From assembly GCA_046290225.1 (NCBI GenBank), contig JBKAGE010000037.1:32001-96000 (forward strand): DNA of 64,000 bases, given 5' to 3'. The stretch is from Bradymonadia bacterium (GTDB lineage Bacteria; Myxococcota_A; Bradymonadia; UBA7976; UBA1532). The position numbers were made by a program. This document shows, one piece after another, positions 45,001 to 48,000 of the stretch. Each line of letters begins with the position of its first letter. Within the stretch, counting starts at the first letter, position 1.

Positions 45001-48000
45001 GGGGCTGACGCCCTCGCCGAAGAGGTGGGGCAAGGCCTCGGCTTCAGCGTGCAGCGGATGCACAAAAACAAGAAGGATTATGAGCGGTATGGCCGCGGCG
45101 CATGGAAAGGGCTCAATGAGCGCATGCTGGCTCAAGGGCCTGATCGAGTGCTCATTTTCCACCCGGCCATCGAGAAGAGCCGCGGCAGCAAGCACATGGG
45201 CAAGATCGCAGAAGCAGCGGGGGTAGAGGTGCAGGTGTTCAGCGGCTGATCACCTGCACCTCTACGTCGTACCGGAGGTCGGAGTCGAACCGACAAGGCC
45301 ATCACAGCCAACCTGGTTTGAGCAGGCCGCGTTTACCATTTCGCCACTCCGGCAAAAGACACCTCGCCTCTCTGAGAGAGACGAGGCGCCCCGCCCCTGA
45401 TCGTGCACGCCATGGATGAGGCTCGAACTGACACAGCCAGATCGTGCTCTGCACTCGCCACGGCGCATATGCGGAAGAGGAGGGAGTCGAACCCCCAAGG
45501 CTTTTCACAGCTCGACCGGGTTCAAACCGGCTGCCGTCACCTGTCGGCTTGCTCTTCCAGTTGGGCTACGGTGCTCCGGCTTTTGGCTCCGGTGCTCCGG
45601 CCTCATCGCCCGCCATCAGGGCGGCGATCTGGCGCCCAGATGCGGCGCTCCGATCCTCGACGTAGCCTCTGGCTACGCCTGCGGTCGGAACACCACATCT
45701 GAACACCACCTCACCACCCTGCTGACGAGCGCTGCGACCTCCGCACCTCCGCGTGCCCGGCCTGATGTTGGCTCCAGTTTTGTGTTGCTGGAGCCCACGT
45801 TAATCTGGGCCCGTGGACCCTTTGGCTTGTCGTGGATGGGGAGGGAATCGAACCCCCGGGGTGCGTACGCACGGCGGGACTACAAGCCGCCCCGGCCCCC
45901 TACCGGTCTACCCATCCAAAAATGTTCGCCCACAGGGGCTCGGCAGCTCGTCGATGGGTGAGCACCGCGCATGTGCACTCGATCACCAACCAGACGCTGA
46001 GCCCCTGGGCAAAATGTGGACAGGGAGGGAGTCGAACCCACGGGGTGCGTACGCACAGCGGATTTACAGTCCGCTCCGGCCCCCCACCGGACTACCTGTC
46101 CAAAAGGCGCTCATTCACAGGGGTCGAATGACCCCACTCGAACCCAAAGCACATATGTACTTGCCCCGCGGAGGCTCTGGGGCTCGGTGGCTGGCCGGTG
46201 AGTGAGTGTGCAGTCGTGGTGGCAAAAGCGCAGGCGTGGCCGGAGGCCCCGTCGAGCATTTTGACGCCGCGAAAGTACGCTCAATCGCCGGCCAGACGCC
46301 GGGCCCCAGAGCCGGAGCGCCGGAGCAAAAAGTGCGGAGGCGGAGGGATTCGAACCCCCACGACCCTTGCGGGCCCTACCAAGGTAGCAACCTGGCCTCT
46401 TCACCAATTTGAGTACGCCTCCACACAAGGCTGAGCTGTCACGCATCAGTGCCGCGAGCCGGATTCGAACCGGCACGACCAAAGGCGGTCCCCGGGCTCT
46501 CAACCCGGTGTGTCTTCCGTTCCACCACCACGGCAAAAATCAGCGGAAGAGGAGGGAGTCGAACCCCCAAGGCCCTTTCGAGCTCACCCGTATTCGAAAC
46601 GGGCGCCATCACCCATTGGCTTGCTCTTCCGTATGGCTCCAGAGCTTCAGCCATGGAGCACTGTGGACAAGGAGAGAGTCGAACTCCCGAGGTGCGTACG
46701 CACGACGCGTTTACAGCGCGCTCCGGTCCCCTACCGGCCTACCTGTCCTCAAAATGCGGAAGCGGCGGGAGTCGAACCCGCAGTGCCTTTCACGGCACAC
46801 CTGTTTTCCGGACAGGCGCGGCGAACCGATATCCGCCTCGCTTCCAAACATCACACACATGTATCCCACCAGCATGCCGACGCAATACAACCATCTCATC
46901 AACACGCAACATGAAGACGCGATACACACGTGTATCAAACGGCACGCACCTACCATCGCCGCCAGAGATCAGAAGTCAGGAAGTGCCCGGGGTGAGATTC
47001 GAACTCACACGTCCTCACGGACACCGGCTTCTGAGGCCGGCGCGTCTACCAGTTCCGCCACCCGGGCATATGGATCCCCAGCGACGATGGCAGGCACGGC
47101 ACATCGTGAGCACACACCCACAATGCTTTTATTTTCTAAGGCTTATGTGCCCTCACGAGCATCAACCGAGGCACAAAAAAAGCCCCTCGGCAGATGCCTG
47201 AGGGGCTTTCGTGCGAAGACCGGCAGGCCTCAGCTCGAACTCCCCTCGAGGGCACTCAGAAGCAACGACGCGCAATAAGACAGGCGCAAGTCGAGGCTTG
47301 AGAGGCGAGAGTTGGAGGTGTTCGAGATGAAGTGCATGAGAACTATCCCTTGTTGAGTGACTCGAAAGGTAGCGGCATAGTCTGACTGTGTCAAAGACAT
47401 TTTTCACATGACAGTCATTTTTCTATTTCGGCCCACTCTGAGCACACCGACAGTCAGCCACTCGGGCTGTAGTATCCTCAGGGGACCCATATCTCCTCCC
47501 GGATCGCCCAGCGCTCGTGATCACGCCATGCACCATCCAAAAAGAGGTAGCTCTTGGAGTAGCCCTCACGCTCGAAGCCCACCCGCTTCACGAGCTGAAT
47601 CGATCGCATGTTCTCGGGCCGGATGTTGGCCTCAAGACGGTGCAAGCCGATGCGAGAAAACGCCCACTCCAGACAGCTGTGCATCCCCTCCTCCATCTTC
47701 CCTGAACCCGCATGGGGCAAGAAGGCGCCGTAACCCATGTACGCGCTGCGGAACAGGCCCATGGAGATCTGGCTGAGGTTGAACACCCCCGCGGGCTCCC
47801 CTGAGGCCTGATCGATCAACACAAGAGTGCGAAAGGCATCGCTCTGCCGATCGATGAGCAGCTGGAACGCCTCTACCGTACGCGCCGTAGAAAACCAGGG
47901 CCCGTGCAGGGAGACACTGGCCTGCGCCGCCGCGATGAACGCCATCTCGTCTTCAGGCACCAATGGTCGGAGTAGAGTTCTTGCGCTCGAGATCAAATCT

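Follow-up and report, generated by a model that had tools for sequence, protein, structure and literature searches.

The question raised by this locus is why a bacterium with an ordinary tRNA set should also keep a compact block of divergent tRNA genes for leucine, serine and tyrosine, and how such a block might be controlled. In the window, i.e., the whole 64,000-nucleotide stretch of DNA that was analysed (part of contig C37 of a Bradymonadia bacterium), ARAGORN predicts 10 tRNA genes, all on the minus strand, within 1,799 bases (45269-47067). Its labels, from 45269 upward, are Leu-caa, Ser-tga, "Thr-tgt" (a Tyr-like gene), Tyr-gta, Ser-gct, Leu-gag, Ser-cga, Tyr-gta, Ser-gga and Leu-cag. 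The parts of the putative operon are as follows, in the order in which they would be transcribed.

47366..47394, minus strand: promoter-like site read from the sequence, TTGACA (47394-47389), 17-nt spacer, TACCTT (47371-47366)
47230..47337, minus strand: leader open reading frame (ORF) of 35 codons plus stop, AAGGGA 8 nt before the ATG, MHFISNTSNSRLSSLDLRLSYCASLLLSALEGSSS
47175..47206, minus strand: intrinsic terminator, 10-pair hairpin plus a run of 7 T
46983..47067, minus strand: tRNA-Leu (cag), first gene of the operon, ARAGORN, Rfam 60 bits
46756..46845, minus strand: tRNA-Ser (gga), ARAGORN, 41.4 bits in a fine Rfam scan
46663..46748, minus strand: tRNA-Tyr (gta), odd D arm, G at position 14, ARAGORN, 32.7 bits
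46543..46630, minus strand: tRNA-Ser (cga), L-array type, 3-nt linker replacing U8-N9, Sec-like D arm
46449..46534, minus strand: tRNA-Leu (gag), ARAGORN, Rfam 47.6 bits
46334..46422, minus strand: tRNA-Ser (gct), ARAGORN, Rfam 54.6 bits
46168..46326, no strand: palindromic MITE-like repeat inserted in an array spacer, inverted arms 46173-46227 and 46259-46313
46016..46101, minus strand: tRNA-Tyr (gta), ARAGORN, Rfam 37 bits
45832..45917, minus strand: Tyr-like gene (ARAGORN: Thr-tgt), 0.83 and 0.79 identical to the two Tyr genes
45582..45753, no strand: second MITE-like repeat in an array spacer, copies on C75, C82, C36, C12 and C37
45471..45558, minus strand: tRNA-Ser (tga), L-array type, 0.83 identical to Ser-tga of the L-array of genome G203
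45269..45353, minus strand: tRNA-Leu (caa), last gene, ARAGORN, Rfam 52.3 bits
45223..45265, no strand: near-perfect hairpin, 21-nt arms, 95% complementary, 4 nt past the last tRNA

Regarding the individual genes, the whole-window Rfam scan passes 7 of the 10 as tRNA, and a finer scan adds Ser-gga and the Tyr gene at 46664-46748. The first-pass annotation had counted both among odd members under the Rfam cut; since the finer scan scores both, their omission was a filter effect, and the statement stands for the Tyr-like gene, which alone among the ten has no score over a family cut-off and whose sole listed match is the tRNA-Sec model (29.4 bits). This gene can be read either as Tyr-GTA with a C31·C39 mismatch or as a tRNA with a 9-nt anticodon loop, and is possibly a decaying copy. 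The tRNA-Sec model is also the best Rfam match in its clan for Ser-cga (41.9 bits), which is 0.84 identical to the best L-array Ser vs 0.65 to the best ordinary Ser of the genome. The MITE-like repeat at 46168..46326 has copies on C47, C38, C36 (two), C75 and C76 at 73-81% identity. The promoter-like site is absent from the output of a consensus promoter scan, its second hexamer matching at only three of six positions. At the other end, the hairpin at 45223..45265 separates the array from a convergent SLOG-like gene and likely marks the end of the operon, where it may act as a terminator despite having no T run.

The window array belongs to a larger supernumerary set. As had been reported, ARAGORN makes 96 tRNA calls across the genome (8,582,528 bases, 83 contigs), of which 42 form a second set in nine loci of 1-10 genes on seven contigs. 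A same-anticodon ordinary twin exists for all but two of the 42 (Arg-gcg and Ile-gat), at identities of 0.55-0.84, or 0.57-0.84, the range given previously, when the Tyr-like gene is set aside. Second-set isoacceptors had been described as closest to one another; in an all-vs-all identity comparison, from which five dubious ordinary calls were first dropped (C13:13200, C34:37879, C35:294260, C37:220911 and C75:150774), the nearest neighbour is indeed another second-set gene for 35/42, and one in the same locus for 29. Mean identity between genes for the same amino acid is 0.67 between the sets and 0.75 and 0.76 within each set. The duplicated multi-gene unit of the C20 array was recovered (copies Val 0.86, Arg cct/tct 0.84, Lys 0.92), as was the excess of Rfam tRNA matches over relatives, here 86 vs 40-47 in five family relatives under stricter filters that scored at most 89 candidates per genome. 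The description of the set as complete holds in that it covers 19 amino acids almost without redundancy, with 39 anticodon species by ARAGORN labels (38 if "Thr-tgt" is read as Tyr), and is generous in that Met, Ile-CAU, Leu-taa/tag, Val-tac, Gly-ccc and Ala-tgc are absent. Second-set His carries U1:A72 and A73, matching neither the ordinary nor the L-array set. The ordinary set is native, because synteny of its Ser/Arg cluster extends to 25 of 25 relatives; the tRNAs are 84-94% identical within the family, and the gene between them is conserved. These comparisons support the view that the genome has a divergent second tRNA set with almost no redundancy in addition to an ordinary set inherited vertically.

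How the second set might be switched on is suggested by the sequences ahead of its arrays. Four arrays are preceded by a promoter-like site, a Shine-Dalgarno site, a leader ORF of 26-35 codons on the same strand and an intrinsic terminator between leader and genes, namely those for Leu/Ser/Tyr (C37, the window), Val/Arg/Lys/Ile (C20), Gln/Glu/Asp/Phe (C42b) and Trp (C77). Sites of the form TTGACN-N16/17-TANNNT also stand ahead of the leaders of C20, C77 and EF-Tu2, a second elongation factor Tu gene discussed below, which likewise has a short same-strand ORF with a ribosome-binding site upstream. In the window leader, 20 of the 34 residues after Met (59%) are Ser (11), Leu (8) or Tyr (1); by hand count, all 20 codons are readable by the array's own anticodons and all eight anticodon species of the array are represented. 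The share of a leader's own amino acids is 0.59 at C37, 0.59 at C20 and 0.55 at C42b, values reached by only 10, 5 and 1 of 30,048 background small ORFs of the genome (empirical p 3.3e-4, 1.7e-4 and 3.3e-5, respectively); a hand count on the leader peptides gives 0.09-0.12 for the themes of the other arrays. The Trp leader has only two adjacent Trp codons, which is weak by itself since WW occurs in 3.3% of background ORFs. The terminators at the four leaders have folding energies of -19 to -24 kcal/mol and runs of 5-7 T, 23-27 nt past the stop codon. In the window, the terminator lies 23 nt past the stop and 107 nt ahead of the first tRNA; its hairpin alone folds at -19.0 kcal/mol, and the leader region has z = -4.46 vs shuffles.

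This anatomy is rare in the genome. A blind detector that ignores amino-acid content and requires a Shine-Dalgarno site, an ATG ORF of 15-60 codons and a strong terminator finds 64 units genome-wide. Four are followed by a tRNA within 600 nt, and all four precede second-set arrays, none an ordinary tRNA; the chance expectation near the nine loci is about 0.02 by hand calculation. The detector also picks the EF-Tu2 leader. For amino-acid enrichment ahead of ordinary tRNA loci, the lowest empirical p among the 32 loci is 0.0175. A clear leader is present at only four of the nine second-set loci: that of C42a (Cys/Pro) is weak (p = 8e-3, no clean terminator), as is that of C79 (GTG start, 0.41 Thr/Gly/Ala, strong terminator), no leader was found at C44 and C34, and the C24 locus lies at a contig end. 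No 9-mer, with one mismatch allowed, is common to at least six of the nine loci, and the four leader regions align loosely (53% mean identity). Judged from sequence, the arrangement ahead of the four arrays is the classical anatomy of a leader-peptide attenuator. Because the leader ORFs are rich in the amino acids of their own arrays, the sorting of the set by amino acid looks functional.

In such a system, the window would hold one of roughly nine small operons, which jointly provide a stand-by reserve of 42 tRNA genes. With charged Leu, Ser and Tyr tRNAs in ample supply, a ribosome translating the leader would reach its end and cover the G-rich leader tail, which would otherwise pair with the C-rich 5' arm of the terminator; the terminator would then form and the spare tRNAs would not be made. 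If any of the three kinds became scarce, the ribosome would stall earlier and the leader tail would hold the terminator's 5' arm, allowing read-through and production of the tRNAs that are lacking. A like design with matching amino-acid content is proposed ahead of the Val/Arg/Lys/Ile, Gln/Glu/Asp/Phe and Trp arrays. Folding models are partly consistent with this switch. In a nascent-transcript model of the window leader, a ribosome at codons 1-24 leaves 9-10 of the 12 bases in the terminator's 5' arm paired with the leader, and one at codons 27-30 or 34-36 leaves 2-3. In nascent-fold models of all four leaders, stalls in the theme-rich part leave most of the 5' arm paired upstream, and a ribosome near the ORF end frees it. 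Under equilibrium folding with a ribosome mask, a structure competing with the terminator emerges at C37 and to some extent at C42b. C20 shows none, and at C77 it does not emerge at the Trp codons.

Attenuators of this kind are known from amino-acid biosynthesis operons, including trpL, hisL, leuL, thrL, ilvL and pheL (cf. PMC3082878, PMC11857589). The second-set leaders resemble these in having an ORF rich in matching codons followed by a terminator, and the Trp leader has two adjacent Trp codons, as trpL does. They differ in that the genes controlled would be tRNA and EF-Tu genes instead of enzymes, and in that the output would be the very molecule whose shortage is sensed; several are multivalent, with three or four amino acids matching the operon content. 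In general, an attenuator combines a short translated ORF, in which regulatory codons abound, with a downstream intrinsic terminator; the 5' arm of the terminator can pair with the leader instead. T-box riboswitches also read tRNA charging to control genes that supply translation; they bind uncharged tRNA directly and govern synthetase and amino-acid genes by antitermination, whereas in the second-set leaders a ribosome would read codons. Rfam reported no T-box match in the window.

We consider it somewhat better than an even bet that the window array is a leader-gated stand-by tRNA operon of a set related to L-arrays, and leaders probably switch the spares on only when their tRNAs run short. 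More tentatively, with confidence falling just short of even, the whole may constitute a self-tuning stand-by translation regulon, i.e., an acquired set split by amino acid, each operon having its own leader gate and EF-Tu2 being gated likewise. Spare tRNA arrays are widespread, and the one studied case is induced by translation stress; the present anatomy suggests how such arrays may be turned on, namely by ribosomes reading a short ORF rich in the array's amino acids. If this is true, attenuation controls not only amino-acid synthesis, its textbook role, but also the supply of tRNAs; the grouping of these arrays by amino acid gains an explanation and a selective reason; and a divergent EF-Tu is linked to the same response as the tRNA operons. 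No description of leader-gated spare tRNA arrays was found in the literature; new here are the tie of the set to L-arrays, the leaders matching their arrays and an EF-Tu2 leader of the same kind. Such leaders are short and portable, and could serve as sensors of the charging state of chosen tRNAs.

An unlikely alternative sees the second set as the relic of an acquired L-array, decaying and for the most part silent, and the upstream ORFs and terminators as coincidental, e.g., ends of neighbouring transcripts. Signs of decay do exist, comprising the MITE-like insertions within arrays, the defective Tyr-like gene, tRNA 3' fragments near C34 and C42a and the odd D arms of seven members; five of the nine loci have no clear leader, and studied L-arrays are reported, in excerpts of PMC8421152, to be poorly transcribed. 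Yet the genes have been retained as tRNAs, as their conserved folding shows. Across 32 second-set paralogue pairs, 140 base pairs have changed; pairing survives in 113 (both sides altered in 74, one side in 39) and is lost in 27. Second-set gene and ordinary twin have the same discriminator base in 27 of 34 clean pairs; both second-set Ala genes retain G3:U70, as had been noted before, and all three Pro genes retain C1:G72. Decay would preserve neither the near absence of redundancy nor the mirrored ordinary anticodon list. Coincidence is further opposed by the three leaders that match their own arrays and by the detector units, of which four in 64 lie before second-set arrays and none before ordinary tRNAs.

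The stand-by reading extends to EF-Tu2 (C57:43020-44210), which reaches 527.7 bits with the TIGR00485 model (cut-off 522.4; 762.3 for the genome's own tuf) and has the GTP_EFTU, D2 and D3 domains and intact GTPase motifs. Its identity to the own tuf is 61% by HMMER, the figure given in the first-pass annotation, and 56% by tblastn. It lies outside a canonical tuf clade of 23 rows (support 100/100), in a Myxococcota-wide group, and its surroundings are not those of canonical tuf (tRNA-Thr/Tyr/Gly/Thr ... tuf ... tRNA-Trp), no tRNA being present within 1.5 kb. Divergent second EF-Tu genes are known elsewhere, e.g., Streptomyces tuf3, and EF-Tu2 resembles tuf3 in being a full-length, three-domain paralogue that retains the GTPase motifs and has about 60% identity to the housekeeping copy; unlike tuf3, it belongs to the group above, has a homologue inside an L-array in two genomes, and has a leader and terminator here. 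The two homologues, inside the arrays of the Myxococcota genomes G203 and G175, are 68% and 65% identical to it. The link of EF-Tu2 to the spare tRNAs had been described as co-occurrence only. This is too cautious given that its Leu/Ser-rich leader, followed by a terminator, is of the same type as the array leaders, and remains apt in that, of 400 sampled genomes, 14 have an EF-Tu2-like gene by score (in the tree, 17 rows lie outside the canonical clade) and only G203 and G175 have tRNAs beside it, the other 12 genomes having ordinary tRNA counts of 27-59. The strict leader detector found no leader beside the 14 EF-Tu2-like loci of other genomes. In the regulon reading, EF-Tu2 would come on with the spare tRNAs and presumably work with them.

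EF-Tu2 also bears on a second improbable reading, that the set and its factor act mainly as a shield against antibiotics, phage defence nucleases or toxins that target tRNA or EF-Tu, with leaders sensing general translation failure rather than a lack of particular tRNAs. In the FYFRTTD segment, an Arg that is invariant in the canonical clade is replaced by Gly in all 17 EF-Tu2-like proteins; this position is a site of pulvomycin resistance in E. coli. Of 39 pairs of a second-set gene and its ordinary twin, 26 differ in the anticodon loop. Excerpts of PMC12803027 call tRNA array units putative anti-defence systems, and the Anabaena L-array is induced by translation inhibitors according to passages of PMC8421152. 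However, a general sensor would not need four leaders of different, array-matched content, and no toxin or nuclease genes were seen beside the arrays. This reading is compatible with attenuation, altering only the trigger.

As for origin, the second set is not native. It was not found in any of 40 relatives, in 37 of which the window array has single Leu matches only (73-81%); in a 400-genome sample of the phylum, searched at E <= 1e-12, 44 genomes show single tRNA matches to it (79-85%), and the C20 array has only generic partial matches in relatives. The comparison of interest is with L-arrays and tRNA array units, known from the trn operon of Anabaena sp. PCC 7120 and from Acidithiobacillus, Mycobacterium and Rhodopirellula baltica (PMC8421152, PMC4758250). 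In the available parts of these papers, a tRNA array unit is defined by at least 20 tRNA genes at a density of at least 2 per kb (Tran et al. 2015, PMC4758250), and L-arrays by isodecoder redundancy, patchy distribution and arrays of up to 43 genes (Santamaria-Gomez et al. 2021, PMC8421152). Here the density is reached, with 10 genes in 1,799 bases, and the unit size is not, the largest loci holding 10 (window) and 9 genes (C20), nor is there a single long same-strand array. Like L-arrays as portrayed there, the second set is supernumerary, redundant in anticodons instead of adding new ones, patchily distributed in a way that implies horizontal transfer, and equipped with atypical members. It differs from those accounts in its nine sorted loci of 1-10 genes in ordinary chromosomal surroundings, its lack of Met tRNA, the leader ORF and terminator ahead of operons, and the associated divergent EF-Tu. 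L-arrays are thought to serve under translational stress (PMC8421152, PMC4758250, in excerpt).

The tie to L-arrays is firm only for Ser-tga and Ser-cga, whose 3-nt linker, Sec-like D arm and variable arm recur in the Ser tRNAs of the 37-gene arrays of G203 and G175. A scan for the Ser 5' motif returned at least 120 contigs; of 80 with full flanks, 51 hold at least 10 tRNA genes, and arrays with related Ser tRNAs of this atypical kind are present in Planctomycetota, Myxococcota, Actinomycetota, Chloroflexia and others. Related arrays share this Ser tRNA and an HNH nuclease, which stands at the end of the G203 array. Arg-GCG, present in the second set, occurs 21 times among 53 arrays of the L-array family. 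The set as a whole seems tied to that family by atypical Ser/Cys/Trp architecture, Arg-GCG and the EF-Tu2 homologue in Myxococcota arrays. Amino-acid types that share a locus here stand closer than in shuffles in G203 (5.70 vs 8.81 +/- 1.67; reached by 4.3% of 2000) and in G175 (4.55 vs 7.97 +/- 1.56; 1.65% of 2000); against Planctomycetota-type arrays, the observed value is reached by 50-80% of shuffles in six of eight and by 18% and 22% in the other two. The stand-by set is probably related to horizontally spreading L-arrays and is here broken up and sorted by amino acid. Whole-set homology by identity was rejected, the mean best identity to the L-array family being 0.721 for all 42 second-set genes vs 0.723 for the ordinary set, with Ser-tga and Ser-cga as the exceptions. 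Second-set Leu genes have a long arm, and 63 of 98 L-array Leu genes are 74-76 nt long. A phage or plasmid source was also rejected, since 58 phage and 20 plasmid records gave single-tRNA matches only, none above 5% of the query among the matches listed. The exact Tyr variable-arm pattern had no hit in genome contigs and one in metagenomes, in coding-like DNA without a tRNA, which is chance. A synteny comparison at the insertion sites placed the flanking genes of relatives on separate contigs. C20 and C24 may join; the contigs show no overlap, and both ends carry opposite arms of a palindromic repeat.

With the same low probability as the relic and shield readings, the set could have arisen within the lineage by accretion and duplication of native tRNA genes, as in A-arrays. 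The duplicated four-gene unit of C20, the Ala acceptor stems, identical in both sets, and the many Ala, Arg, Glu-ttc, Leu, Phe and Pro genes that are nearer to ordinary twins than to the G203 and G175 array genes fit such an origin, as do the ordinary neighbouring genes, with no integrase or transposase beside the arrays. Identity is nevertheless lower between the sets than within them, no relative has intermediate copies, and kinship with the L-array family is indicated by the rare Ser architecture, Arg-GCG and the EF-Tu2 homologue. An assembly or binning artefact would also give a full second tRNA set and a second EF-Tu, but the tRNAs of a second organism are ruled out by 2.21% contamination at 99.38% completeness and by one gene each for the Ser, Thr, Pro, His-like, Tyr, Trp, Ile, Val, Leu and Met synthetases (searches with PF00587, PF00579 and PF00133 found no second set in the genome), and disfavoured by second-set loci on contigs of 98-613 kb, C34 also bearing ordinary tRNAs, and by the lack of a second Met or initiator tRNA. 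The spare tRNAs of an acquired stand-by set would presumably be charged by these single-copy host enzymes. The strict leader detector found no leader at the G203 and G175 arrays; a relaxed look at G203 gave a strong terminator (-33.3 kcal/mol) 272 nt before the array, behind an ORF ending in four Gly, which is a hint only.

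ARAGORN analysis of the whole genome (8,582,528 bases, 83 contigs, 64.4% G+C) returned 96 tRNA calls, the number claimed in the first-pass annotation, and 42 of these fall at the nine loci to which it had assigned a second, divergent tRNA set. An all-against-all tRNA comparison reproduced its identity figures. The claim that second-set genes are closest to one another was also borne out: after removal of five dubious ordinary calls, the nearest neighbour is a second-set gene in 35/42 cases and one of the same locus in 29/42. By ARAGORN labels, the second set comprises 39 anticodon species with near-zero duplication (Asp x2, Tyr x2 and 'Thr-tgt' x2, one of the last being a Tyr-like gene). 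Met is absent from its anticodons, as had been stated, and Leu-taa/tag, Val-tac, Gly-ccc and Ala-tgc are missing as well. The second set is real and more than a gene-count curiosity; it represents a variant of known spare-tRNA arrays in which the genes are dispersed and grouped by amino acid. Outside the window, a well-formed tRNA with a canonical cloverleaf and the anticodon CUA (labelled 'Pyl' by ARAGORN) lies on a 43.5-kb contig (C14:27995-28067); it shows 0.74 identity to a Met tRNA and could be an amber suppressor.

The array in the window and its neighbours, which also include two GNAT acetyltransferases, are as follows.

39654-40349, Leu/Phe-tRNA protein transferase
41713-43107, DNA methylase
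within 42849-43850, HhH-GPD repair gene
44893-45249, plus strand, small SLOG/YAcAr-like protein (25.8 bits, cut-off 28.2), convergent with the array
45269-47067, minus strand, ten tRNA genes (ARAGORN)

ARAGORN assigns the ten genes to Leu (caa, gag, cag), Ser (tga, cga, gga, gct), Tyr (two) and a third, Tyr-like gene that it labels Thr-tgt. Seven of the ten pass the Rfam tRNA threshold when the window is scanned whole, and finer scanning brings two more over it, Ser-gga (41.4 bits) and the Tyr gene at 46664-46748 (32.7 bits). For Ser-tga, Ser-cga, one Tyr and the Tyr-like gene, the top match in the finer scan is the tRNA-Sec model, with none of the four attaining the cut-off of that model.

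Two kinds of small palindromic repeat lie in or directly behind second-set arrays, at the following sites.

window 45582-45753 and 46168-46326
C20:634-794
C34:375226-375423 and 375659-375755
C42:39798-39898, 92006-92210 and 93020-93127

One kind is MITE-like, about 160 nt long, and is repeated many times elsewhere. The GC-rich second kind, about 97 nt long, has 21 copies in the genome, of which 10 adjoin second-set tRNAs, and begins directly behind all three second-set Pro genes. tRNA-like fragments consisting of a T arm and 3' acceptor strand, apparently relics of lost array members, occur about 60-110 nt upstream of Pro-tgg (375151) on C34 and about 70-100 nt upstream of Pro-ggg (39723) on C42; one frame of the C34 fragment reads as four Pro codons in succession. 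Just after the Pro pair on C34, a 602-aa protein is encoded (L006:8959-10767) with a weak TROVE (Ro60-like) match of 28.4 bits and DUF7788. Ro-type proteins are binders of tRNA-like Y RNAs.

Regarding a possible artefact, the ordinary Ser-Ser-Arg-Ser-Ser cluster (C35) has a counterpart in all 25 relatives searched, with tRNAs 84-94% identical within family and a conserved gene between them. The window array finds nothing but single Leu tRNA matches (73-81%) in 37/40 relatives, in agreement with the earlier search, and the C20 array gave only generic partial matches in relatives. Genome completeness is 99.38% with 2.21% contamination, and the contigs bearing the second set reach 613 kb and carry ordinary tRNAs as well. 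A search of three synthetase families revealed one gene each for Ser, Thr, Pro, Tyr, Trp, Ile, Val, Leu and Met, and one His-like match. Because the array was not found in relatives, contamination is low, the contig context is mixed and the synthetases searched are single-copy, the second set is part of this genome itself and is not vertically common to the relatives sampled, none of which is of the same genus.

Among 400 genomes of the phylum, two of one genus (G203 and G175) contain a Ser-tga 82% identical to that of the window, and both carry a genuine long array, with 37 tRNA genes in each. Ser-tga and Ser-cga of the second set have in common with these arrays a three-base linker replacing U8-N9 and the variable arm, and in both sources their D arm fits a stem of six pairs and a loop of four bases; the shortened D arms of second-set Cys and Trp are common to these arrays too. 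A scan for the 5' motif of these Ser genes, with one genome per species, matched at least 120 contigs. Most of those listed are titled Planctomycetota (Gemmataceae, Isosphaeraceae, Pirellulales, Planctomycetaceae), and a few are Myxococcota, Actinomycetota, Chloroflexia and others; Zavarzinella formosa, Gemmata algarum and Aquisphaera insulae are named strains among them. Among the matches listed, 80 loci had full flanks, of which 51 carry at least 10 and 28 at least 20 tRNA genes, and gene order recurs within the family (L035-L154, public contigs, mostly Planctomycetota). This family is of the L-array or 'tRNA array unit' kind known from Tran et al. (PMC4758250) and Santamaria-Gomez et al. 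(PMC8421152); a supplementary table of the former credits Rhodopirellula baltica with one array unit and with 76 tRNA genes. The tRNA-Leu of the family mostly lacks a long variable arm (63/98 are 74-76 nt), unlike the second-set Leu genes, which retain it. Arg-GCG, which is rare in ordinary tRNA sets, occurs 21 times in 53 arrays of the family and is present in the second set too. Within the family loci (L035-L154), the Ser genes have a Sec-like D arm and Ile-UAU genes occur 16 times; the atypical Ser-cga is solitary in several Gemmataceae contigs.

As a whole, the second set shows no higher identity to the L-array family than the ordinary set does, and its gene order is unlike that of Planctomycetota arrays; part of the set may have originated within the lineage. 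In the G203 and G175 arrays, which are not independent of each other, the amino-acid types sharing a locus in the genome under study are nearer to one another than in shuffles, the observed value being reached by 4.3% and 1.65% of 2000 shuffles. Our reading of these sequence comparisons is that the second set would descend from a Myxococcota-type L-array that was broken up and in places duplicated again, perhaps with native-like genes mixed in.

Comparison of 32 second-set paralogue pairs (identity at least 0.70) revealed 140 differing base pairs, of which 74 are changed on both sides and still paired, 39 on one side and still paired, and 27 broken, counts that overstate upkeep somewhat because the pairs share members and a gene no longer recognisable as a tRNA could not enter the comparison. 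The discriminator base is that of the twin, the ordinary tRNA with the same anticodon, in 27/34 clean pairs. Second-set Ala genes keep G3:U70, as noted in the first pass, and Pro genes keep C1:G72; T loops are of the canonical form. Departures include U at -1, U1:A72 and A73 in His, U73 in Gln, a first base other than G in several genes, odd D arms in Ser-tga/cga, Tyr, Asp, Cys and Trp, and an anticodon loop unlike the twin's in 26/39 pairs. The ordinary tRNA-His has C (not G) at -1, with C73, and a Thg1-like protein encoded elsewhere in the genome (Pfam Thg1, 106 bits) could add G-1 to it post-transcriptionally (sites of the tRNA-His/Thg1 pair, C35:228775-228851 and C54:6327-6722).

Upstream of the window array and three others, leader units were found, beginning with the window's promoter-like site.

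upstream of the window array, minus strand, promoter-like TTGACA-N17-TACCTT, the first element
between this site and the leader ORF, minus strand, AAGGGA
window 47337-47230, minus strand, leader ORF of 35 codons
window 47206-47175, minus strand, 10-pair hairpin and seven T, 23 bases past the ORF and 107 bases before the first tRNA
C20:1606-1499, leader ORF of the Val/Arg/Lys/Ile array, 35 codons long and encoding 9 Arg, 7 Val, 2 Lys and 2 Ile
C42:93841-93743, leader ORF of the Gln/Glu/Asp/Phe array, 32 codons long and encoding 5 Phe, 5 Glu, 4 Gln and 3 Asp
C77:152301-152381, leader ORF of the lone Trp gene, 26 codons long and containing two adjacent Trp codons

The 34 residues after Met in the window leader include 11 Ser, 8 Leu and 1 Tyr. 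By hand count, all 20 Ser/Leu/Tyr codons are readable by the array's own anticodons, all eight of its anticodon species are used, and five codons in a row each need a different array tRNA. The other three leaders each have a Shine-Dalgarno-like site and a strong terminator 24-27 bases past the stop. Leaders are weak at the Cys/Pro and Thr/Gly/Ala loci, none was seen in the upstream regions at C44 (Asn/His) or C34 (Pro), and the C24 (Arg) array is situated at a contig end. Two Trp-rich small ORFs with a terminator behind them (C35:270226-270143, 4 Trp in 27 residues; C20:15699-15749, 4 in 16) may be classical trp-type leaders.

Against 30,048 small ORFs of the genome, the fraction of own-theme residues (amino acids carried by the array's tRNAs) in the window, C20 and Gln/Glu/Asp/Phe leaders is reached by 10, 5 and 1 ORFs, the leaders themselves counted; a hand count gave 0.55-0.59 for the own theme vs 0.09-0.12 for the other two. 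As a negative control, 32 ordinary tRNA loci showed no leader amino-acid enrichment (best p = 0.0175). A blind detector without any amino-acid criterion (Shine-Dalgarno site, ATG ORF of 15-60 codons, terminator of -13 kcal/mol or lower within 50 bases) found 64 units in the whole genome, four of which have a tRNA within 600 bases downstream; all four precede second-set arrays, where about 0.02 units would be expected by chance near the nine loci (hand calculation). In a nascent-fold model, which steps a ribosome through the codons and folds behind it no more RNA than has been transcribed by then, a stall in the theme-rich part leaves the terminator 5' arm mostly paired with the leader tail, and a ribosome near the stop frees it, in 4/4 leaders each; for the Trp leader, the pairing changes one to two codons past the Trp pair. 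Equilibrium folding gave a less clear outcome. These features strongly suggest leader-peptide attenuation in which each leader is tuned to the amino acids of its own operon, a switch mechanism that we infer from sequence alone. Among the papers listed by literature searches, none joins leader peptides or attenuation with a tRNA operon, array or cluster, and PMC8421152 does not mention leader, attenuat- or terminator.

The divergent second EF-Tu gene of the genome (EF-Tu2) stands behind the same kind of putative gate as the tRNA operons.

C57:43020-44210, EF-Tu2

About 240 bases upstream are a 39-codon leader (10 Leu, 7 Ser), also picked up by the blind detector, a promoter-like site and a terminator. 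EF-Tu2 is 68% and 65% identical to the EF-Tu gene within the G203 and G175 arrays, respectively, and 56% to the genome's own tuf. The G203 array ends with an HNH nuclease, and such a nuclease is reported adjoining cyanobacterial L-arrays in PMC8421152, where EF-Tu or 'elongation factor Tu' is not mentioned in connection with arrays in the main text; a literature search on 'tRNA array' and 'elongation factor Tu' likewise found no paper on their association. An EF-Tu2-like gene outscoring every canonical tuf is present in 14/400 genomes, and in a tree 23 canonical sequences form one clade (support 100/100) with 17 EF-Tu2-like rows outside. Only in G203 and G175 do tRNAs lie within 1.5 kb of it. 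With at most 89 candidates scored per genome, tRNA counts are 27-59 in the other 12 genomes vs 86 in the genome under study, 72 in G175 and 69 in G203; because these 12 carriers have ordinary tRNA counts, the paralogue is more widely distributed than the extra tRNAs. All or nearly all of the 17 EF-Tu2-like proteins are without the N-terminal AKEKF segment and show A108G, D110Q, M113Q and R334G relative to invariant canonical residues (numbering of the genome's own tuf). The Arg site matches a pulvomycin-resistance position in E. coli.
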